Of a stretch of DNA of 64,000 nucleotides, positions 51,004-63,829 are shown piece after piece. The notes under the pieces were generated by a model. It searched no databases. It saw nothing but the letters and a program-made list of their open reading frames with translations, and was not told the origin of the DNA. The translations under genes were made by a program, and so were the position numbers. How positions within the stretch are numbered: the stretch's first letter is position 1; each line of letters begins with the position of its first letter. This stretch comes from Candidatus Marinacidobacterales bacterium (GTDB taxonomy: Bacteria > Acidobacteriota > Vicinamibacteria > Marinacidobacterales > SMYC01): the NCBI GenBank assembly GCA_965237955.1, contig OZ250169.1, forward strand, positions 640,001 through 704,000. Reading direction: 5' to 3'.

Positions 51004-51957
51004 TGTCCTTCATCATTATTGATCCAGCGGGAATGGTACCGCTGGTGGCCCTACGACGAACGAAGAAACCCGGGTCGGCGCGCGCGGGCACTTGCCGAGA
51101 TCACGCGATCAATGGGCCGCGGAGCTGGACAACGCAATCGCGAGGGACCCCAGCAATCGACGCGCAGCGACTAAACTGGCTCAGGCGGCGTCGCGCCATT
51201 CGTAGCGGTGGTGGAGCCCACCCACTCGCGGCAACGCGACGACTTTTGCGGTCGGTGATGGTCGGGGCGTGACGGGTCTTGAGTTCGGGGTGTCTTTGTC
51301 GAGACCCAAGTGGCAACGGTCCTCGTGGTAGTAGCTGATGTACAAGCGCATGAGCCGGACGAGATGCCGCTCACTGAGGACAACTACATGCTCTAACATC
51401 TCGCGGCGGCGGTTTCCGATCCAGCGTTCGGCGGTACCGTTTTGCCAAGGGCTGCGATAAGAAATGCGAACAGGCTTTGTGCCCATGGCCCTGATGAACT
51501 CCACCACTGCAGGGCTGAAAATCGCGTCGCGGTCAAAGACCAAGTATCGTGGTGCCGTGTCGTATGGGAACGCCTCGCGCAGTTGTTGAATCACCCACGC
51601 TGACGTGGGGTTGTACGTCGCGTTGAAGTGCAAGATATGGCGACGGCCGTGCTCGATGACGAAGAAGCCGTACAGCAGCCGTAGCGACGCCGTCGGTACG
51701 GCGAACAGATCCATCGCGGCGATGTCGTCCTTGTGGTTCCGCAAGAACGCAATCCATCGCTTCACTTCGTCGGGTTCGGCTCGGCGGTGCGGCATGTATC
51801 GCGATACCGTCATCTCGCTGACAACGAATCCGAGCTTCGTCAGCTCAGCGTGGATACGAGGTGCACCCCAGCCGTCTTGGGCCATCGTGCGGACGAGACA
51901 ACGAATCTCGGCATCAATCCGAGGTCGACCTGGATAGCGCGGACGGGAGATCCGAGC
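51004..51957 (-). mobile_element. rve/DDE element, partial copy 1 (5' part of transposase missing)
   Basis: Matches 51958-52911 with a few SNPs; ORF 51181-51885. Confidence 0.9.
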
Positions 51958-53303
51958 TGTCCTTCATCATTATTGATCCAGCGGGAATGGTACCGCTGGT
52001 GGCCCTACGACGAACGAAGAAACCCGGGTCGGCGCGCGCGGGCACTTGCCGAGATCACGCGATCAATGGGCCGCGGAGCTGGACAACGCAATCGCGAGGG
52101 ACCCCAGCAATCGACGCGCAGCGACTAAACTGGCTCAGGCGGCGTCGCGCCATTCGTAGCGGTGGTGGAGCCCACCCACTCGCGGCAACGCGACGACTTT
52201 TGCGGTCGGTGATGGTCGGGGCGTGACGGGTCTTGAGTTCGGGGTGTCTTTGTCGAGACCCAAGTGGCAACGGTCCTCGTGGTAGTAGCTGATGTACAAG
52301 CGCATGAGCCGGACGAGATGCCGCTCACTGAGGACAACTACATGCTCTAACATCTCGCGGCGGCAGTTTCCGATCCAGCGTTCGGCGGTACCGTTTTGCC
52401 AAGGGCTGCGATAAGAAATGCGAACAGGCTTTGTGCCCATGGCCCTGATGAACTCCACCACTGCAGGGCTGAAAATCGCGTCGCGGTCAAAGACCAAGTA
52501 TCGTGGTGCCGTGTCGTATGGGAACGCCTCGCGCAGTTGTTGAATCACCCACGCTGACGTGGGGTTGTACGTCGCGTTGAAGTGCAAGATATGGCGACGG
52601 CCGTGCTCGATGACGAAGAAGCCGTACAGCAGCCGTAGCGACGCCGTCGGTACGGCGAACAGATCCATCGCGGCGATGTCGTCCTTGTGGTTCCGCAAGA
52701 ACGCAATCCATCGCTTCACTTCGTCGGGTTCGGCTCGGCGGTGCGGCATGTATCGCGACACCGTCATCTCGCTGACAACGAATCCGAGCTTCGTCAGCTC
52801 AGCGTGGATACGAGGTGCACCCCAGCCGTCTTGGGCCATCGTGCGGACGAGACGACGAATCTCGGCATCAATCCGAGGTCGACCTGGATAGCGCGGACGG
52901 GAGATCCGAGCCCAGTATCGGCGGAACCGATCTCGATTCCACCGGGCGACCGTGTCGGCGTTCACGATAACGAGCCGGCTCGCCCACGCTGGCCACGAGC
53001 TTCGGAGCGCAACCCAGAATGCTCGGTCCGTGTCCTCGAGCGGTGGCCGGGGGCGCTCCTTCTTCAACGCCGTAACTTGCTGCCGCAGGGCCAGGTTTTC
53101 AATCACGAGGTCGGCTCGGCGCCGACACATCGCCCGGATCGCACGGGCGCCGAGTGAGACGAGGAAGATGAGGACACGGAGCATGGCGGCAGAGTTTGCC
53201 GTCTCAAGACCGGGATCTCAAGCGGGAGATGCGTTCGTTGGCCGAGGCGTGAACGGTGCGTAAGTCCTTGATTTCAGGAGCGGACGGATATTGATGATGC
53301 ACA
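51958..53303 (-). mobile_element. Complete 1346-bp TGT..ACA-ended rve/DDE element (IS481-like)
   Basis: Imperfect IRs TGTCCTTCATCATTATT / TGTGCATCATCAATATC; single transposase ORF. Confidence 0.85.
52135..53184 (-). CDS. Integrase-core (rve) DDE transposase
   Basis: ENLALRQQ, WGAPRIHAEL, AMDLF (D), FDRDAIF (D), QNGTAERW (E), GGLHHRY. Confidence 0.92.
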   Translation of the reverse strand: MLRVLIFLVSLGARAIRAMCRRRADLVIENLALRQQVTALKKERPRPPLEDTDRAFWVALRSSWPAWASRLVIVNADTVARWNRDRFRRYWARISRPRYPGRPRIDAEIRRLVRTMAQDGWGAPRIHAELTKLGFVVSEMTVSRYMPHRRAEPDEVKRWIAFLRNHKDDIAAMDLFAVPTASLRLLYGFFVIEHGRRHILHFNATYNPTSAWVIQQLREAFPYDTAPRYLVFDRDAIFSPAVVEFIRAMGTKPVRISYRSPWQNGTAERWIGNCRREMLEHVVVLSERHLVRLMRLYISYYHEDRCHLGLDKDTPNSRPVTPRPSPTAKVVALPRVGGLHHRYEWRDAA

Positions 53304-54267
53304 ACATGCTCTAACATCTCGCGGCGGCAGTTTCCGATCCAGCGTTCGGCGGTACCGTTTTGCCAAGGGCTGCGATAAGAAATGCGAACAGGCTTTGTGC
53401 CCATGGCCCTGATGAACTCCACCACTGCAGGGCTGAAAATCGCGTCGCGGTCAAAGACCAAGTATCGTGGTGCCGTGTCGTATGGGAACGCCTCGCGCAG
53501 TTGTTGAATCACCCACGCTGACGTGGGGTTGTACGTCGCGTTGAAGTGCAAGATATGGCGACGGCCGTGCTCGATGACGAAGAAGCCGTACAGCAGCCGT
53601 AGCGACGCCGTCGGTACGGCGAACAGATCCATCGCGGCGATGTCGTCCTTGTGGTTCCGCAAGAACGCAATCCATCGCTTCACTTCGTCGGGTTCGGCTC
53701 GGCGGCGCGGCATGTATCGCGACACCGTCATCTCGCTGACAACGAATCCGAGCTTCGTCAGCTCAGCGTGGATACGAGGTGCACCCCAGCCGTCTTGCGC
53801 CATCGTGCGGACGAGACGACGAATCTCGGCATCAATCCGAGGTCGACCTGGATAGCGCGGACGGGAGATCCGAGCCCAGTATCGGCGGAACCGATCTCGA
53901 TTCCACCGGGCGACCGTGTCGGCGTTCACGATAACGAGCCGGCTCGCCCACGCTGGCCACGAGCTTCGGAGCGCAACCCAGAATGCTCGGTCCGTGTCCT
54001 CGAGCGGTGGCCGGGGGCGCTCCTTCTTCAACGCCGTAACTTGCTGCCGCAGGGCCAGGTTTTCAATCACGAGGTCGGCTCGGCACCGACACATCGCCCG
54101 GATCGCACGGGCGCCGAGTGAGACGAGGAAGATGAGGACACGGAGCATGGCGGCAGAGTTTGCCGTCTCAAGACCGGGATCTCAAGCGGGAGATGCGCTC
54201 GTTGGCCGAGGCGTGAACGGTGCGTAAGTCCTTGATTTCAGGAGCGGACGGATATTGATGATGCACA
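53304..54267 (-). mobile_element. rve/DDE element, partial copy 3 (3' part missing)
   Basis: Matches 52340-53303 with a few SNPs; ORF 53204-54148. Confidence 0.9.
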
Positions 54268-54408: not shown

Positions 54409-54909
54409 TCAGCGATGCACAGTGCAGTGGCGACGACCAAAGAACTGTTTTCTGCCATGCTTGTCGGTTGTATCGTCCGGTTTGTGGAACTTGAGCGGGA
54501 CGCTGCTTCTTGTTTGATTACTAATATTCGGCAGGACTCTGCGGTCGGCAAAGTCCTTTTGGAGATCGGAATCGCACGAAAACAAGACCGTGGCTTGGCC
54601 GGCAGCTGCCAGGGCGAGAACATGCGGATCGTTTGACCGGCGAGTCGGTCGTTCAGGAATGTCGTTGTGCGCGGCTCTAACTTCCTCCGCTGTGATACGT
54701 TCGGCCCGTCCTCTCTGCCTGAAATCGATTAGTAACGCGAGGGCAGTCTTATTTTTTCTTAGTTCATCGCCGTATTTCGAGTCTTCAGCGTAGACGACAA
54801 AACCGTAGCCATTTGTAATCCATTGCCGCAACTGATGTCCAGCCGTGTTTGTCGACTGCTCATGAAGATGGCGAAATGCGCTGGCGTCAATGATGGTCCT
54901 CACACACAT
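54409..54909 (-). CDS. PIN-domain-like putative ribonuclease
   Basis: N-terminal IIDASA and SNDPHVLALA...VLFSCDSDL give the PIN acidic-residue pattern. Confidence 0.72.
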   Translation of the reverse strand: MCVRTIIDASAFRHLHEQSTNTAGHQLRQWITNGYGFVVYAEDSKYGDELRKNKTALALLIDFRQRGRAERITAEEVRAAHNDIPERPTRRSNDPHVLALAAAGQATVLFSCDSDLQKDFADRRVLPNISNQTRSSVPLKFHKPDDTTDKHGRKQFFGRRHCTVHR

Positions 54910-54919
54910 GTCGATGATC

Positions 54920-56188
54920 TCATATGGGCAATCCCATTAGCCGGGCCGTCTCTTCCGAGAAAAACTGCCGATAGTTCTGGGGCTGCCCGCTGAGATTGCC
55001 ACTTCCGTCGAGGCGGAGCTGATACAACCGTGTTGCGGATGGATCGTCAGCACGGCGCTCCAAATACACGATGCCGACGTCCGAAGCTGCCAAGTTTCCC
55101 TCGGTGACCATGATCCGGAGCCAATCGATCACGTGATCGCTATGTGTTTCGACAATGAACGTATGGTTGCTCTCGGCCACTATCCGGACGAGCTTCGCCT
55201 GGGCGGATGGATGGATGTGGACTTCTGGTTGCTGCAGTAGGAAAAGCGTGTTTCTGGAAGCTTCCATCAGGGACTTGATCAAGGGGAGAACGTTAGTTAT
55301 ACCGTAGCCGACATCAACAAGATTGCACATCACGCCAGAAACGTCTGCCAGAATTTCGTACTGGTGTGGGCCGCGTTCCCGTACGTCGACACGGTTGAAC
55401 AGGTCCAACTTACGTCCCACATTATTGATCGCTTCCAGGTGCGTACCTCCGTCCAGAACTCCTAGTGGATCGTCAGGGTAGGAACGCCTTCGCTCGAGGC
55501 CATTTGGATCGATTGCTTTGACCGCAATGGGTGTCTCGGACGCTCGAAATTGATGCCGGAAAAAATTAATGAACTTGCCAAACATCACGAGTTCCTGATC
55601 CGTGGTACGGCCCATCCTCTTCCTGAATTGGGTAACATCGCCATCGAAAGGCAGCACGTTCCTACGTACGTATTGCGACAGCCAGGTCGTGAACTGCTTA
55701 TACGACACGACGGACTGATCAAGCTCGAACTCGAAGCCAGGGCCTTCGAAGCGCCAACGCTCCGCTCTGCCTTCGGGAGTTTCGCGGGCGATTCTCAACT
55801 GAGCCCCAGCGTGTGAAGGGTTGGCGGCTAACTCCAATTCGAGCACCCTTTCCTGCATAGCGCCATCGTGACCCGGCTCGAACTCTATCTCCAGCCGGCG
55901 AAAGCGATCATCTTCCATGCCGATGCCGACTCGAAATGACGGGTATCCCGATCGTGCGAGATTCTCAAATGAACCCATACAGAAAGGCTTTTGGTCGAAA
56001 TAGTTCGTTTGGTCGGTCAGCTCTACGAGGCCAGAAAGACGGACAAGGCCGTAGATGCAACCGAGAAACGTGGACTTGCCCGTGCTGTTTTCCCCGACAA
56101 GAAGAGTCACCTTGGAGAGTTCAGCGTGCTGCTCGCCGGCGAAACACCGAACATCCTTCAATGACAACGAAGTGATCTTACCGCTCAT
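54920..56188 (-). CDS. ABC/AAA-type ATPase (AAA_15/AAA_21 with DUF3696-like tail)
   Basis: Walker A GENSTGKS; signature-like VGYG; Walker B/D-loop LLQQPEVHIHP; H-loop IVETHS. Confidence 0.88.
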   Translation of the reverse strand: MSGKITSLSLKDVRCFAGEQHAELSKVTLLVGENSTGKSTFLGCIYGLVRLSGLVELTDQTNYFDQKPFCMGSFENLARSGYPSFRVGIGMEDDRFRRLEIEFEPGHDGAMQERVLELELAANPSHAGAQLRIARETPEGRAERWRFEGPGFEFELDQSVVSYKQFTTWLSQYVRRNVLPFDGDVTQFRKRMGRTTDQELVMFGKFINFFRHQFRASETPIAVKAIDPNGLERRRSYPDDPLGVLDGGTHLEAINNVGRKLDLFNRVDVRERGPHQYEILADVSGVMCNLVDVGYGITNVLPLIKSLMEASRNTLFLLQQPEVHIHPSAQAKLVRIVAESNHTFIVETHSDHVIDWLRIMVTEGNLAASDVGIVYLERRADDPSATRLYQLRLDGSGNLSGQPQNYRQFFSEETARLMGLPI

Positions 56189-57675
56189 GTTCGTCCTCCT
56201 CGGAGGCGCCTACCCAGGAACGACAGCCGTCGGTTCAGCCAAGACATAAAGTGGCTGCCGCCGCGTGAGGGCGGGTCTTCGCGACGGACTGGTTCATCAA
56301 TGAAGGGATATCGCCAATTGTCGCCTTGCGCGGTTCTCGCGGCGATAGTGCAGCTTGATAGGCACTCGGTAATCTGCGGCGTCAACCGACCAGATATGTA
56401 GCTGTAGTGGAACTTCGTGGGCGCAGGAGGCCACCACGCTTCGCGCAAGATAGAGCGCAGCATCTCAAGAACCATCAAGCTGCCAAGATTAGCGCTGAAT
56501 GGGAAGACGTTCTCGTTGCCAGGGACTTCCATCCCGGGACGGTCTCGCACCACATACGTTGGATCATCGAGCGATCCGTCGCGCTCCATCATGACGCTGG
56601 ACGTTGTATATTGACCGTCACAGCGAAGGCAACGCAACTCTGGACCGGCTCGAACGACGTTCCATGTTGCGTCGGCGAGGCTCCCGTTAGTTTTCGTCGC
56701 CACTCGTACGCCCCCAAAGATCACCGGAATACAGTGCAGGTAGGAGATGTTGTTGAGGATGTCCTTTGGAACCGGTCGGTCGACCGCAGCGAACAGGACG
56801 TCACAGTCCAAGGCTGCTTGATAAGCATTTCGTTCCTGAATCCAAGCACGTCGTGCATCAACGTGAAAACGCGCGGCGGTGGCGCTGCGTTTCAAGTGCT
56901 CCGCCACGAGATCGACCTTGAAGCGCCCGATGTCGCTCGTGCCGGCATAGAGAAGCCGGTCGAGGTTATGCGCTTCCACACGATCCGCATCCACCAGAAG
57001 GATATCCGTTACTCCTATGCGGGCGAGTGTCTCCGCAATGATGCAGCCTACGCTACCAACCCCCACAACACCGACTCGGAGACTAGAAAGGAGGTTCTGC
57101 CGGTCTTGCCCCCAGGTATCAACGGTACGGCGCAAACGCGTGGAGCGATCGACTGGCGCCATCTTGGACGGATTAAGGCTGAGTTGGAGTCCCTTGCCTA
57201 CGACTCTGACCTTGTCGCACCACACACGGTCGAACTTCCGGCCGTTCCAACGCCAGAATCGGGCGCTCCAGACGCCGTCTCGGCCAACGGTGAAGCCGAG
57301 AAGCGGTAATCCGGCGGCCCGGGATGGAGGTGCGATCCGGTCGCGCTCGGCAATGACGTCGTCAGGGCTCATCCCCTGCCAGCCGGCGGTGGGATGACTG
57401 TGCATAAAAGCGACGCCCATGTTCGTTTGGCATGCCCTCCGCGCTGCTCTAGCAAGGTATGCGGACTCGAAACTCACGTTGCCATGCAGACTTCGTTCGC
57501 TGCGCAGCGGAGTCAGAAGCTCGGAGACGATGCCGGTCGTTCGAGACGCGCCGGTGCTGGGGCGCCAAAGTGCGAAACAGAGATCCTCCTGCAGCTGGCC
57601 GCTGCGGATTCGACTGAGAAGGTGCTGCTTCGCCTGTTCGGCCAGAGACTCAGTCAGAACTGCGTCGAACCTCAT
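56185..57675 (-). CDS. JAB/MPN peptidase fused to ThiF/E1 ubiquitin-like activating enzyme
   Basis: QEDLCF...FMHSHP...MSPDD (JAMM motif); VGVGSVG, DADRVEAHNLDR, AVDR, CLRC; start at ATGA overlap 57675. Confidence 0.9.
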   Translation of the reverse strand: MRFDAVLTESLAEQAKQHLLSRIRSGQLQEDLCFALWRPSTGASRTTGIVSELLTPLRSERSLHGNVSFESAYLARAARRACQTNMGVAFMHSHPTAGWQGMSPDDVIAERDRIAPPSRAAGLPLLGFTVGRDGVWSARFWRWNGRKFDRVWCDKVRVVGKGLQLSLNPSKMAPVDRSTRLRRTVDTWGQDRQNLLSSLRVGVVGVGSVGCIIAETLARIGVTDILLVDADRVEAHNLDRLLYAGTSDIGRFKVDLVAEHLKRSATAARFHVDARRAWIQERNAYQAALDCDVLFAAVDRPVPKDILNNISYLHCIPVIFGGVRVATKTNGSLADATWNVVRAGPELRCLRCDGQYTTSSVMMERDGSLDDPTYVVRDRPGMEVPGNENVFPFSANLGSLMVLEMLRSILREAWWPPAPTKFHYSYISGRLTPQITECLSSCTIAARTAQGDNWRYPFIDEPVRREDPPSRGGSHFMSWLNRRLSFLGRRLRGGRT

Positions 57676-58040
57676 AGCTGGGCGAGGACACGCAGCAAGT
57701 GCCGTCTGATGTAGGTCTTCATGTTTTTTCGAGAGGAATCCAGGCGGTCCCAAAAATCACTCGGTGGAAGGCTGTATGCGAACCATCTCTCGCCCTCAAA
57801 GTCGTGTTCGAAGTGCTTCGTGATTCTGTTGGTGCTGACGGACGACTTCAAGTGGACGAAGTGCGGGGGATATTCGGGATAGGCATTCTCCTGGAAGCTC
57901 AAGCCTACTACCAGCGTCTGTCCCTTGTAACAACCATGTCCGACCGGAACATCGACAACCACCGCCGGCCCGGAGGAAAACTCGACGATTCTCGGAACAA
58001 AGCCAAGCTCGCGCAGTTCCTCGGCAACACGCTCCAACAT
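57672..58040 (-). CDS. Prokaryotic E2/UBC-like protein
   Basis: UBC hallmark AYPEYPPHFVHL, then WFAYSLPPSDFW; lies between Ubl and E1. Confidence 0.72.
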   Translation of the reverse strand: MLERVAEELRELGFVPRIVEFSSGPAVVVDVPVGHGCYKGQTLVVGLSFQENAYPEYPPHFVHLKSSVSTNRITKHFEHDFEGERWFAYSLPPSDFWDRLDSSRKNMKTYIRRHLLRVLAQL

Positions 58041-58044
58041 CGGA

Positions 58045-58509
58045 TCAGGCTACGGGTGTGCTGCCCACGTGGATCGCGATAAATTTGTCTCCGTCCGAAA
58101 TTGTCACTAGGTCGTTCAGATTCTCGTACTTGTGTCCGTCGGCGATGTTCTCTAGGTAGTAGCTACCAAGGTCGTCGAGATCTATAGCTGCTCCCAGGCC
58201 TGCGTTTCTGAGAATGGCTTCGAGCGAAAGAGGATTCACCACCGTAGTGTTCACTTCACCGTTGACCGTGTAGCGGATCGGTTTCTCCACGGGCTTCTCT
58301 GAAGAGTCACGTTTTCTTGTCTTGAAGCGTTCATCCGGGCGGATATCAATGAGCTCGTCAGGATTGCCATGTTCGACGCCGTCCTCGGAAACAAGAACAG
58401 CATCCTTGCTGGAGGTTCCAGCAAGTTGCAAGAGCAATCCGACCTTTTCTGGACTGCGTTCCAACTTATAGGGCTTGTCGTCAATAAAAAACTGGCTATC
58501 TGATGTCAT
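58045..58509 (-). CDS. Tandem (two-domain) ubiquitin-like / multi-ubiquitin domain protein
   Basis: Two similar units (FFIDDKPY..LLQLAG..DELIDIRPDERF; YTVNGE..ILRNAG..NDLVTISDGDKF); GGAG RBS before ATG 58509; ends HVGSTPVA. Confidence 0.75.
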   Translation of the reverse strand: MTSDSQFFIDDKPYKLERSPEKVGLLLQLAGTSSKDAVLVSEDGVEHGNPDELIDIRPDERFKTRKRDSSEKPVEKPIRYTVNGEVNTTVVNPLSLEAILRNAGLGAAIDLDDLGSYYLENIADGHKYENLNDLVTISDGDKFIAIHVGSTPVA

Positions 58510-59289: not shown

Positions 59290-59650
59290 GGAGGGCCGTC
59301 GTCGAGCTTCGAGAGCCATTTGTTTATCGAAACACCAGCCGAATCGTGTCCGTTGCGGAGAATGGATCGAAGCCGGTCGCGTATAGCCTGCGGACGTTTG
59401 CTGGACAGTCATGGTCGAGTCAGCTTCCGTCAGGCCTGGGCGGAGGCGTGCCAGCGGGTAGGTGTCTTGGGCGGATCCCTCACGATCTTCGTCGAACCGC
59501 AGTCTGAAACCTCGTGTGCGCTGGAGTATCCGAGCGGGTGACAATGCAACTGTTAGAATATAAAATTGGAGCGGTTTTTTGACCGATACGACATCGTGAA
59601 CGAGACAGATCTTTCGGCGGCGGTGAGGCGACTGTCGTCCGCTCGTGCAC
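59290..59650 (+). pseudogene. Tyrosine recombinase/phage integrase C-terminal relic
   Basis: SFRQAWAEAC..G / RIPHDLRRTAV*NLVCAGVSERVTMQL / FDRYDIVNETDL with frameshifts and a stop. Confidence 0.8.
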
Positions 59651-59745
59651 CACAGAGTCAAACGAAAGGCTCTTCATTGAGGCAGACGACTGCTGGGTCT
59701 TCGACGAGCCCCATTGGCGTGATAGGTCCGCAGCGACCTAGCCGC

Positions 59746-60855
59746 GTGAGCGCGGTCTCACTTGCCTCCGCCGAGTGGACTGGGGGCGTCTGTAACACCG
59801 AATGGACCTTTCACCAACTATCGCCGTACATCGGGAAGTCGAAGTCCTCTATGGCGGCAGCCTTGGTGAGGGAATTTGCCCTGCCGGGTCACACCGTCTA
59901 CGAGCCGTTCTCAGGCTGCGGGTCGATCGCCTTCGAAAGCTGGGCAGCCGGCTGCAACGTAATCGCAAACGACCTAAGTCCATATGCGAGGCTTCTCACT
60001 CGTGCGAAGCTCTTTCCCTATGCGTCGCTAGAACTGGCGCTGGACGATCTTCATCGTTCCGCCGGAGCTGTCAAGAAGGAGTCCAGGCCAGCTCTGCGGT
60101 CGGTGCCGAAGTGGGTTCGAGAGTTCTTTCATCCCGATACACTTCGCGAGATCCTGACCTGGACTGCGGTGCTACGGCGTCGGCGACACTGGTTCCTACT
60201 GGCGTGCTTGATGGGGATTCTGCATCATCAACGCCCAGGCTTCCTTTCCTTTCCAAGCAGTCACTCGGTACCGTACTTGCGCACGCGGAAGTTCCCCCGT
60301 GACCAGTTTCCTGAAATGTACAAGTACCGGGCGTTGATGGATCGGCTAGAGAAGAAAGTGTCGCGGGCATTTCGGCGCGTTCCAGAGCTTGATTTTGATT
60401 TGCGCCGCTCGTATTATTCGCAAGACGCCGCTCGATTCAACCCAGGCCCGGTCGATGTCATCCTCACGAGCCCGCCGTACATGCGGCAGCTCGACTACGG
60501 TCGAGACAATCGCTTGCGATTGTGGTTTCTGGGCTGTCGAGACAGCGATGCTCTCGACGAGTCCGTGTCGCCAGCCGAGAGCGATTTCCTCGCTTTGATG
60601 CGAGCGTGTTTCATGCGCTGGAAAGACGCCCTGATCTCTGGGGGCAGCTGCGTTCTAGTCATAGGTGATACGTGCAGTCGGGAGAACCGCAGCGCGCTTC
60701 CGGACGCGGTGACGCAACTCGCACGCGACACTGGCTTCGTTTTCTCCGGTCAGCGCACGGACGTCATTCCGAGCGACAGGAGGGTCAGGCGGGGGATCAC
60801 TGGCAGTTTGTCGGAGACAATTCTGGTGCTGCGCAAAGGCGGAGCCGCGCGGTAG
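59746..60855 (+). CDS. Amino-DNA methyltransferase (m4C-type SPPY motif)
   Basis: HQLSPYIGK; motif I EPFSGCGS; motif IV ILTSPPY; start uncertain (ORF-track extension to 59566 is the integrase tail). Confidence 0.88.
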   Translation: MSAVSLASAEWTGGVCNTEWTFHQLSPYIGKSKSSMAAALVREFALPGHTVYEPFSGCGSIAFESWAAGCNVIANDLSPYARLLTRAKLFPYASLELALDDLHRSAGAVKKESRPALRSVPKWVREFFHPDTLREILTWTAVLRRRRHWFLLACLMGILHHQRPGFLSFPSSHSVPYLRTRKFPRDQFPEMYKYRALMDRLEKKVSRAFRRVPELDFDLRRSYYSQDAARFNPGPVDVILTSPPYMRQLDYGRDNRLRLWFLGCRDSDALDESVSPAESDFLALMRACFMRWKDALISGGSCVLVIGDTCSRENRSALPDAVTQLARDTGFVFSGQRTDVIPSDRRVRRGITGSLSETILVLRKGGAAR

Positions 60856-61200: not shown

Positions 61201-61336
61201 ACAACACAAGGTGAGGGGGGGCCGGGGTCGCGAGTTCCGGGTTCGGATTTCTGGTTCCTCGTGTTTCGAAAGAGTTTGTCGGATCGAAATCGCGAATGAA
61301 CGCATTTCCGCGTGGCACGCAGTTCAAGGGAAAATC

Positions 61337-63829
61337 ATGAGAAAACACCTGCCCGCACCCGAGCAGTTTGTCGGACAGCCAGTACCCGAACACCCCGAGT
61401 ACATCATCGTAAAAAAACTCGATTCTGGTTGCAACGGGCACGTGTTCGTCGCCCGTTCCGACACGCTCGGCCGAGAGATCGCGTGCAAGGTGATCCCTGT
61501 AGCGAATCTGATCGGTGCTGACCGCAGACCACCGACCTGGAGAGAAGAGATCCTCAAGGCGAATACTGTGCCGTCGAACCGAGTCGTTAAGTTCTACAGC
61601 ACTGGAACATGGTCAACCAAGGATGGCGATTGCGTATTCCTGTTGTCCGATCTGGTTCGTGGCCAAGCTTTGCGCAAATACCAGAAGAACTCATCCGTCA
61701 GCCTTCTCTTTGTGCTGGACTTCTTCAAGGAAATGCTGGATTTCCTGCGAGAGTTGCAGGAAGTCGGTCTTCAGCATGGCGATTTTCACGCGGGTAACGT
61801 GCTCGTCGAAGACCGCTCTGCATCGTTGATCGGAACTCCTTACGCGTTTCGGGTAACTGATTTCGGGGTCGCCCCGTTGACTAGCGGTGCCAATCTACTG
61901 GATGACTACGATCAGGTTGGGCTTATGCTGCGTGACCTCTTGGCTCTTGTGGATTACCAGACGTGCACGCCCGAGGACCGACATATGTTCGACGTCCTCA
62001 ACGACGACTTTCTAGCGAAGGGACTTTTTGAGCGAGACGCCGCTCACGACGAGCAGGCCCGAAACCCGCTTTTACTCTTCGAGTCACTGGAAAATGCAAA
62101 GCGGAGCTTTGCGGTCCATAACTTGAACCTCGCTCGGCGCACGCTGGTTACACCGTTCGACTACCTCAGTTGCGAACAAATCGGCGAATCTCATGCGCTC
62201 CTTAAGGAGTTGTATTCGGACAAGATGGTTGGCCTTCGTGTCATTGAGGAAACTAATAATCTAGTACTGACAGGACCGCGAGGGTGTGGCAAGACGACCG
62301 TCTTTCGGAGCCTGAGCCTGAAGCACCGGTTTTACACGGGAGATGATGCGCCGGAGTTGGTCTCGTACATTGGTGTCTACTACCGGTGCGACGACCTCTA
62401 TTTCAATTTTCCCCGGTACGTACTGCCTAAGCGCACTGGTGCGCTCGACGTACCCTTACATTTCGTTACAGCGACGTTGATGCGCGAAATGCTGGAGTCC
62501 TTAGGCCTCTGGCTCCCACGACACTTTCCCGAGGCGTGGCAGCGCGACGAGCGGAACGTCGCACGCGAACTGTGGAAAGTACTCGGTCTGAAAAAGCCAC
62601 AGCAGCCTAGCGCCGACACGTTTGCTGTGATTCAGCGCGCGCTCGGACAGGAGCGCGAGCGTGCGGCGAAGAAACAGCGGTTCGTGGACGACCCCACCCA
62701 TTCGTTCGGAGAATACTTTGGTCCGGGAGTCCTGCCGACGTTCTGCTCGATGCTTCTCGAGCGAATGTCATGCCTCGCTGGACGGCCAATCTTCTTTTTT
62801 TTTGATGACTACTCGAAGCCGAAGATTAGCAGAGATTTACAGCAGAACGCAAATCGGCTTCTGATGCAGCGTAGCCCATCGTGTTTTTTCAAGCTAGCCA
62901 CTGAGAGCCCGGCTTCATACGAGAGCAGCGACATTGATGGGAAGTCTTACGTCGAAGGACGCGAGTTTCGTCTCGTCAATCTCGGGATCGACTTTATCAA
63001 GTCAGAGAGCGATGACAAGCTGCGGTTCGTTGATGATGTCTTCGGTCGGCGGTTTCAATACACGAAAGACTATCCGGTGTCATCGCTTGAAACTCTTGTC
63101 GGCGACGAGCCGAACGAGTTTTCGCACAACGAGATGGCTAGAGCGCTTCGAGACGGCAAGCATCCAAAGATCTGGGGCCGTCGCGCGCTCGGGGAACTAT
63201 GCAGCGGCGACATCCATTTTCTTATCGAACTTGTAGGGAAGATGGTAGCAGCTACAGGCGGCGTGGACGCCTTAGTTGGCGAGCCGGCACCTGCGATCAA
63301 GGCTGAAATCCAGAACAAGGCGATCCGCGATGAGGCCGGCAAGTTCCTTCGAAACCTTCGCACACTCCCAGAAGGACAGGCGTTGGTTGAAGTCGTTGAA
63401 GCGTTTGGCAACGTGGCGTCCTCATACCTACGTTTCAAGGATTCAAAGAACGAAACATCTTGGCCGCCGCACCAGGCATCGCGAATTGAGCCATACGAAG
63501 ATCCTCACCTCACGGGCGCGGCGAAGGTGATCTACGAGAACCTTCTTCGCTATTCCGTTTTCATCGAGGATGTTCGCGGAAGGAGCCGGAGGGGAAACGT
63601 CGTCCCGCGCCTCTATTTGAGACGGTTCTTGATTCCGTTCTTCAACCTTACGTTTAGCCGCAGGGACTCCCTTGAGCTCAGCGTGGAGGATTTTAGAAGC
63701 CTCCTCCTCGATCCCAAGGAGTTCGAGAGAAAGAAGCGGCTTAAGAGTGCTGTCCCTCATGAGGCGACAGTCGAAGATGCCGGTCCACCTGCGCAGCTAC
63801 TCCTCAATTTCGTCCGCCCAAAGGAGTAG
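61337..63829 (+). CDS. Ser/Thr protein kinase fused to P-loop NTPase (ORC/CDC6- or STAND-like)
   Basis: LDSGCNGHV, IACK, HGDFHAGN, TDFG; then GPRGCGKT and FFFFDD; probable ATG 61337. Confidence 0.88.
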   Translation: MRKHLPAPEQFVGQPVPEHPEYIIVKKLDSGCNGHVFVARSDTLGREIACKVIPVANLIGADRRPPTWREEILKANTVPSNRVVKFYSTGTWSTKDGDCVFLLSDLVRGQALRKYQKNSSVSLLFVLDFFKEMLDFLRELQEVGLQHGDFHAGNVLVEDRSASLIGTPYAFRVTDFGVAPLTSGANLLDDYDQVGLMLRDLLALVDYQTCTPEDRHMFDVLNDDFLAKGLFERDAAHDEQARNPLLLFESLENAKRSFAVHNLNLARRTLVTPFDYLSCEQIGESHALLKELYSDKMVGLRVIEETNNLVLTGPRGCGKTTVFRSLSLKHRFYTGDDAPELVSYIGVYYRCDDLYFNFPRYVLPKRTGALDVPLHFVTATLMREMLESLGLWLPRHFPEAWQRDERNVARELWKVLGLKKPQQPSADTFAVIQRALGQERERAAKKQRFVDDPTHSFGEYFGPGVLPTFCSMLLERMSCLAGRPIFFFFDDYSKPKISRDLQQNANRLLMQRSPSCFFKLATESPASYESSDIDGKSYVEGREFRLVNLGIDFIKSESDDKLRFVDDVFGRRFQYTKDYPVSSLETLVGDEPNEFSHNEMARALRDGKHPKIWGRRALGELCSGDIHFLIELVGKMVAATGGVDALVGEPAPAIKAEIQNKAIRDEAGKFLRNLRTLPEGQALVEVVEAFGNVASSYLRFKDSKNETSWPPHQASRIEPYEDPHLTGAAKVIYENLLRYSVFIEDVRGRSRRGNVVPRLYLRRFLIPFFNLTFSRRDSLELSVEDFRSLLLDPKEFERKKRLKSAVPHEATVEDAGPPAQLLLNFVRPKE

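Follow-up and report, generated by a model that had tools for sequence, protein, structure and literature searches.

A Type I Bub relative that lacks BubE, with a predicted Tyr-then-Ser oxyester relay, in a Marinacidobacterales genome

Introduction

In the Bub pathway, as described in the available text of Ye et al. (PMC11601596), the ubiquitin-like protein (Ubl) passes through intermediates that are oxyesters instead of thioesters, and Tyr370 of the E1 and Ser333 of the E2 are both required by mutation. According to the same text, every Bub operon carries BubE, and no phage protection was found. Here we analysed a gene cluster on the minus strand of contig OZ250169.1 (Candidatus Marinacidobacterales bacterium), which lies in a 64,000-nucleotide stretch of that contig (the window). 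A first-pass annotation of this DNA had named the Bub oxyester intermediates, correctly, and had proposed a Tyr/Ser relay for the E1, E2 and Ubl encoded here. We consider it probable that the cluster, which has no BubE, is related to Type I Bub and works by a Tyr-then-Ser oxyester relay, with Ala154 of its Ubl as the likely activated terminus. Gene layout, folds, residue equivalences, conservation, the absence of BubE and the coupling to an ATPase-PIN gene pair were all computed here, from sequence and models.

Since Tyr/Ser oxyester chemistry was already published by Ye et al., it is known rather than new, and the interest of the cluster sits in the variant. Table S1 of Ye et al. is defined as DUF6527-containing operons and, in the part available, has no ATPase entry (PMC11601596); BubE-less operons were hence outside this published catalogue by construction. 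In the parts accessible, neither Gong et al. (PMC11601603) nor the CapK paper (PMC13373217) goes beyond two Bub types. Within the open-access literature searched (bioRxiv main texts without supplements; for Ye et al., PMC11601596 and not the journal article, PMC12885553), no Bub was described that lacks BubE, ends in Ala or is tied to an ATPase-PIN pair.

Results

Gene cluster and its resemblance to Type I Bub

The genes and residues under discussion are as follows.

58045..58509, minus strand: Ubl (BubA-like), 154 amino acids; ATG at 58509; two beta-grasp domains predicted; end F-IAIHVGSTPVA-stop
58050-58048, minus strand: codon of Ala154, the inferred mature terminus of the Ubl; the Gly149 codon is at 58065-58063
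57672..58040, minus strand: E2 (BubB-like), 122 amino acids; predicted catalytic Ser90 (57773-57771), with His60 (57863-57861); Cys37 not conserved
56185..57675, minus strand: JAB peptidase-E1 fusion (BubCD-like), 496 amino acids; JAB residues E30/H92/H94/D106; adenylation residue R240
56556-56554, minus strand: codon of the predicted catalytic Tyr374 of JAB-E1, which also has a probable structural zinc site, C349/C352/C438/C442
54920..56188, minus strand: ABC-type ATPase, 422 amino acids; Walker A GENSTGKS, degenerate Walker B LLQQPE
54409..54909, minus strand: predicted PIN-family nuclease, 166 amino acids; acidic D8, E49, D94, D113 and D119 conserved

The Ubl, E2 and JAB-E1 genes run head to tail, with a gap of 4 bp between the first two and an ATGA overlap between the second and third. 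A second ATGA overlap joins JAB-E1 to the ATPase gene, and the PIN gene follows after 10 bp. The interval first annotated, 56185..58509, covers Ubl, E2 and JAB-E1 and does not reach the accompanying ATPase and PIN genes; nor did the annotation mention that BubE is missing. Longer starts for the E1 (TTG 57753) and the Ubl (ATG 58572) were set aside, as homologues fit the shorter forms.

JAB-E1 matches ThiF in Pfam, and its top sequence match in the PDB is Citrobacter BubCD (E 1.5e-14 with the single sequence, 5e-25 with a profile). Its AlphaFold2 model, with a mean predicted local distance difference test score (pLDDT) of 87.4, fits BubCD over the full length (Foldseek E 3e-35, template modelling score 0.70-0.81), and the runner-up family in that search reached E 9e-16. 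The protein is a JAB domain fused to a single adenylation domain, as in the BubCD fold. The E2 had no match in Pfam or PADLOC, and PDB sequence searches gave nothing meaningful (one returned Rad6/Ubc2 weakly, at E about 1). With its AlphaFold2 model (pLDDT 96.6), Citrobacter BubB ranked first of 48,161 chains (Z 9.0, root-mean-square deviation 3.6, 114 residues aligned), followed by UBC-fold proteins. No Pfam, PADLOC or PDB sequence match was obtained for the Ubl. Its language-model features lie nearest to Multi_ubiq PF14452 clusters (score 0.92, a lead only), and it aligns with BubA C-terminal domains.

A conserved tyrosine in the E1 crossover loop

Sequence and profile alignments to BubCD ended short of the crossover loop, and a multiple alignment through a proxy was therefore used. 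The proxy was an Enterobacter plasmid Type I operon (L122), whose proteins have the same lengths as those of Citrobacter, carry E28/H91/H93/D104/R227/Y370 and G229/D299/S333/H335/K358, and match the Citrobacter PDB chains at E 2e-72 or better. In this alignment the JAB residues E30/H92/H94/D106 correspond to E28/H91/H93/D104, R240 to R227, Y374 to Y370 and Y356 to Y347. The CLRC motif occupies residues 349-352, the next Cys is C438, and both tyrosines lie between them.

Conservation was examined in a close set (n=120, identity 55% and above) and in a distant set, in which 84 of 150 representatives span the loop and, with the reference row, give 85 rows at 26-50% identity. Y374 is kept in all 120 close homologues and in 83/85 rows of the distant set, and Y356 in 52/85 rows of the latter. 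Y356, which pairs with BubCD Y347, was rejected as the catalytic residue for this reason; the first-pass annotation, which pointed to Tyr residues in the loop, is refined in that Y374 alone is conserved at this depth. No close homologue has a Cys in the loop (0/120), and the nine distant rows that do (9/85) have it at scattered positions.

A rival reading is a conventional thioester relay through E1 C442 or C438, or through C37 of the E2, and we regard it as extremely unlikely. In its favour, C442 is present in all 47 rows of a distant alignment and is ahead of C438 in the distant set (79/85 against 69/85). However, C349 and C352 are each kept in 84/85 rows of that set, and the four cysteines together would fit the structural zinc site of ThiF/MoeB/UBA5-type E1s. 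The BubCD of L122, moreover, is without all four, whereas some other Type I proteins have them.

A serine site in the E2

The multiple alignment pairs S90 of the E2 with S333, H60 with D299 and P92 with H335. S90 lies within WFAYSLPP, and the sole Cys, C37, lies upstream of YPEYPPH. Two overlapping sets were compared, namely 77 distinct sequences from the related loci (defined below) and the best 120 of 787 database matches. S90 and H60 are present in 77/77 locus sequences, and S90, H60 and P92 in 120/120 of the best database matches. C37 is private to one of the 77 and was rejected as an active site; 77 of the 120 database E2s carry no Cys at all, and the most Cys-rich alignment column has Cys in no more than 8/120. 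With C37 in one of 77 and no column above 8/120, the E2 step cannot be a conserved thioester, which counts against the cysteine relay on the E2 side.

All the sequence details in the first-pass annotation were as stated, i.e., CLRC, a Cys-free E1 loop with Tyr, a lone E2 Cys upstream of YPEYPPH, the Ser in WFAYSLPP and a Ubl ending STPVA. The unusual pattern that it reported goes beyond chance, given the loop and C37 counts above and an invariant S90. The alignment with Bub E1 and E2 that it named as a check yielded Y374 = Y370 and S90 = S333. Because both residues align with Bub catalytic residues and are conserved, it is highly probable, as judged from this alignment, that the proposed Tyr/Ser relay operates here. 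His60 is likely to be the base that activates Ser90.

The E2 is without both Type I helper residues, Asp and His, and this observation gives some room to a different explanation, in which the Ubl is adenylated but no tagging proceeds through the E2. The E2 would then be a scaffold, the Ubl would go to a small molecule, or the Ubl would regulate the ATPase-PIN pair non-covalently. The state of the Bub field is compatible with this, since targets and function of Bub are not yet established in the available parts of the two papers concerned (PMC11601596; PMC13373217). On the other hand, S90, H60 and Y374 are invariant at positions required by mutation in Bub, which argues for retained catalysis, and we consider the absence of tagging improbable.

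The C-terminal end of the Ubl

Ubl ends were collected with a last-domain profile from 80 sources (the 79 loci and the window), which gave 77 Ubls in 76 of them. All 77 have V-A, eleven residues past the Phe of the last strand. The protein stops at this Ala in 48 cases, has a short variable tail in 23 and continues into the E2 in six. Tails and fusions all begin past the Ala, with 12 different first residues. At the Gly149 position, Gly is present in 66/77; the 11 Ubls without it keep TxVA.

The profile had been trained on VA-ended sequences, and for that reason two lines of evidence that do not depend on it matter. The actinobacterial plasmid Ubls, found by E1 similarity, end in VA without a tail in 5/5 cases, and three of them have no Gly in the last six residues. 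In the alignment with BubA, Gly229 pairs with V153, one residue before Ala154 and four after Gly149. The activated end of the Ubl is thus very likely Ala154 rather than Gly149, as far as alignments can tell. Activation of an Ala terminus had been the fallback idea of the first-pass annotation, and it fits the tail statistics, the plasmid Ubls and the BubA alignment.

The idea that the annotation preferred, namely the same relay with the JAB domain trimming STPVA to expose Gly149, as BubCD cuts BubAB after Gly229, has intact JAB residues and the frequent Gly in its favour, and every Type I BubA terminus examined has Gly either as its last residue or ahead of a short tail. Such trimming is nevertheless impossible in the 11 Gly-less Ubls. 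It would discard a part that is better conserved than the Gly itself, it does not account for tails and fusions that begin past the Ala, and it would leave an end four residues shorter than that of BubA. We therefore found the trimming idea unsupported and hold it to be very unlikely. There are precedents for ends other than Gly: in the text available, the CD-NTases of CBASS (cyclic oligonucleotide-based antiphage signalling system) have a terminal Gly or Ala, and Cap2 conjugates them in either form (PMC10097602); for Type II Bub, Ser is the last residue of the BubA used in vitro (Table S2 of Ye et al., PMC11601596). If activation at Ala154 is right, oxyester E1 and E2 enzymes would accept Ala, and possibly Val, termini.

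Absence of BubE and association with an ATPase-PIN pair

Related loci were taken from the best 80 of 165 matches, which gave 79 loci, all at least 45% identical. A BubE profile that recovered BubE in 9/9 annotated control loci had no match in the 64-kb window or in any of the 79 loci (flanks up to 6 kb, shorter at eight loci), nor in the plasmid loci L082-L086 and L088-L090. The two DUF6527 genes of the genome lie about 290 and 560 kb from the cluster. They belong to a Type II Bub operon and to an orphan BubE, and BubE may therefore act in trans within this genome. The Type II operon (G000:C1:132,109-133,977, L080 and upstream) encodes a 90-residue BubA ending in Ser, a 396-residue BubBD and a 145-residue BubE, and adjoins an IS6-like transposase. 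The orphan DUF6527/BubE gene (L081, G000:C1:402,411-405,596) lies between an IS3-like element and apparent CRISPR repeats, seen as repeated motifs in translations.

The ATPase is present in 67/79 loci and the PIN gene in 65/79, and the two occur as a pair in 65/79. Of the 65 loci in which the distance could be measured, 60 have the Walker A of the ATPase 60-160 nucleotides past the E1 stop. Pairwise identities of E1 and ATPase are correlated (Spearman 0.73 across 60 loci; the highest value under permutation was 0.12), with the proviso that related loci are not independent. The ATPase matches Pfam AAA_15 and AAA_21 above cut-off; among PADLOC models it matches NsnB (4e-37), PDC-M55A (1e-28) and a model labelled HEC-03B (8e-20, covering residues 281-414 only). 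The PIN protein has a weak Pfam PIN match below cut-off (E 0.018) and matches no PADLOC model, while its acidic residues are 89-98% conserved over 64 rows.

Comparison with known systems

Type I Bub (Citrobacter BubAB-BubCD-BubE; PDB 9EA4, 9EAE, 9EAV), as given in the available text of Ye et al. (PMC11601596), shares with the cluster the JAB-E1 fold and catalytic residues, the crossover-loop Tyr, a Ser-type E2, a beta-grasp Ubl and the gene order. The differences are several. BubE (DUF6527) is absent from the operon. The Ubl ends in Ala, and maturation to a C-terminal Gly does not fit by sequence, the VA end being conserved and the Gly missing in 11/77. In the E2, His stands in for Asp299 and Pro for His335. 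JAB-E1 has four zinc-type cysteines that the Citrobacter-like BubCD does not have, the ATPase-PIN pair lies downstream, structural identity is about 21%, and the family forms a separate branch in a quick tree. The cluster would work like Type I Bub yet is set apart from it as a BubE-less relative. It was not filed as Type I since three defining features that were tested are lacking, namely BubE, the E2 helper residues and the Gly end. Fusion of Ubl and E2, a Type I trait in the text of Ye et al., is a weaker guide: the genes are separate here and fused in 6/77 relatives, but they are also separate in the first 31 rows of Table S1 (PMC11601596).

Type II Bub (E. coli ZDHYS365 BubA-BubBD-BubE) shares the Tyr/Ser chemistry and a non-Gly Ubl end (Ser). 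It differs in having its E2 fused to the E1, no JAB domain and a BubE. When their profiles were compared, the E2 family and the Type II BubBD of the same genome did not match; a loose alignment places a His of the L080 E2 near the same position as His60. Type II CBASS, with Cap2 and Cap3, resembles the cluster in that conjugation proceeds via a C-terminal Gly or Ala and the JAB peptidase cuts after the last residue, according to the parts available (PMC10097602; bioRxiv 2022.03.31.486616). It differs in its cysteine thioesters, its fused E2-E1 and a CD-NTase substrate instead of a beta-grasp Ubl. Bil systems (Type I/II) have a separate JAB gene and an E1 catalytic-cysteine domain in the text at hand (PMC11601596), neither of which is found here.

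The downstream pair resembles HEC-03 and Menshen NsnB/NsnC, in which a PIN-fold protein likewise comes after an ABC ATPase whose Walker B is degenerate, in line with the PADLOC matches. HEC-03 phage defence needs both genes, according to the accessible text (bioRxiv 2024.01.29.577857). The word ubiquitin is absent from the main text of the HEC-03 and Menshen papers. No NsnA-type (ParB-DUF262) gene was seen among the conserved neighbours in the 79 loci. The PIN protein here stands alone and keeps its acidic residues, with no fused effector, whereas Menshen NsnC is an inactive PIN with an effector.

Proposed mechanism and its weighing

By homology to Citrobacter Bub, the E1 domain would adenylate the Ubl C-terminus at Ala154, using R240. 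Tyr374 would take the Ubl as an oxyester and hand it to Ser90 of the E2, probably activated by His60, and the E2 would attach it to a lysine of the target with no E3 involved. The Ubl of the window would need no processing, whereas in relatives with tails or E2 fusions the JAB domain is expected from the layout to cut after Ala. It would probably also remove tags, the operon having no BubE. More speculatively, the ATPase-PIN pair might be the defence output of the operon, controlled by tagging.

Several observations weigh against the reading as a BubE-less, Ala-activating relative of Bub. The crossover loop (358-385) has pLDDT below 50 in the JAB-E1 model, and the position of Tyr374 accordingly rests on a sequence alignment that is gapped on both sides. 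The absence of both Type I helper residues, Asp299 and His335, means that the reactivity of Ser90 is not guaranteed. Gly is still kept in 66/77 Ubls, the training of the profile biases the 77/77 count for VA, and 4/80 sources had no Ubl match. The wider family also has ends other than Ala, namely Ser in the second copy of this genome and Val in two haloarchaeal Ubls. Finally, the ATPase-PIN pair is missing in 12/79 loci and in all nine plasmid loci L082-L090, and the Ubl/E2/JAB-E1 core therefore does not need it. When a complex was predicted from an E1 domain dimer, domain 2 of the Ubl and ATP, with the E2 as partner, the score was 0.65 against 0.51 for the control, which is evidence neither way.

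A bolder proposal is that such loci form a third Bub type, Ala-terminated and cysteine-free, with a Ser-His E2 site, with the JAB domain replacing BubE and with tagging switching a dedicated ATPase-PIN effector on or off. We put this forward tentatively, as something that is possible though doubtful. If true, this would make it the first among Bub-like pathways to carry its own output, and would lead directly to what Bub systems target and do. The coupled pair offers an obvious read-out and candidate targets, at a time when, by the parts of the papers available, the targets and function of Bub are not yet established and blocking of phage has not been demonstrated for any Bub operon (PMC11601596; PMC13373217).

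Distribution, relatives and neighbouring genes

The family is large. Among 8,000 candidates scored, 2,571 proteins reached E<=0.001, other ThiF proteins among them; at E<=1e-30 there were 389 clusters (50% identity), which may include Type I. The family extends to Actinobacteria and haloarchaea. Several named hosts of the loci belong to sponge-associated taxa. Given that all 79 loci are at least 45% identical, the block may have had a single origin and spread among phyla. A quick tree, built from 47 chosen rows and rooted at the midpoint, places the BubE-less family on a branch apart from BubE-bearing Type I (Shimodaira-Hasegawa-like approximate likelihood ratio test support 99, in effect unrooted); whether the family is one clade was not tested in it. 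L090 is without BubE and yet grouped with Type I on a long branch, and L128, labelled BubE-less in the tree, has BubE by the profile.

In nine of the 11 loci L069-L079 and at the second copy in this genome, another neighbour is found, with a weak DUF2971 match below cut-off (E 0.042) and mostly on the opposite strand. The plasmid relatives carry neither this neighbour nor the ATPase-PIN pair. The second family copy (G000:C1:3,061,886-3,064,961) has an E1 42% identical to that of the cluster, an 85-residue Ubl ending PAS, a Ser-type E2 and a JAB-E1 with the loop Tyr; the next gene, in place of ATPase-PIN, is DUF2971-like and on the same strand. On two haloarchaeal plasmids (L088:3969-6443 and L089:3726-6470) there are Ubl-E2-JAB/E1 operons that keep the loop Tyr, have no BubE and encode a Ubl with a terminal Val; these are possible archaeal oxyester systems. 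Upstream of the Ubl in the actinobacterial loci L082-L086 are ImmA/IrrE or HigA/RelE regulators, and L083 also has DarT, ADP-ribosylglycohydrolase and Abi genes. These settings are consistent with defence islands.

In the window, three tandem near-identical transposase-like reading frames lie immediately 3' of the PIN gene (51181-54148). Divergently upstream of the cluster are genes for a DNA methyltransferase and for a kinase fused to an ORC-CDC6-like ATPase (59566-60855 and 61211-63829), which suggests a defence island. In the Type I Bub operons L087, L126 and L127, a gene of 480-530 codons, annotated as a phosphotransferase in two of them, lies between BubCD and BubE and possibly marks another effector slot. 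At L014:7504-9452 the ATPase-PIN pair has the opposite orientation to the core, and at L103:3161-4213 an HNH-like gene, its motif recognized by eye, fills the downstream slot.

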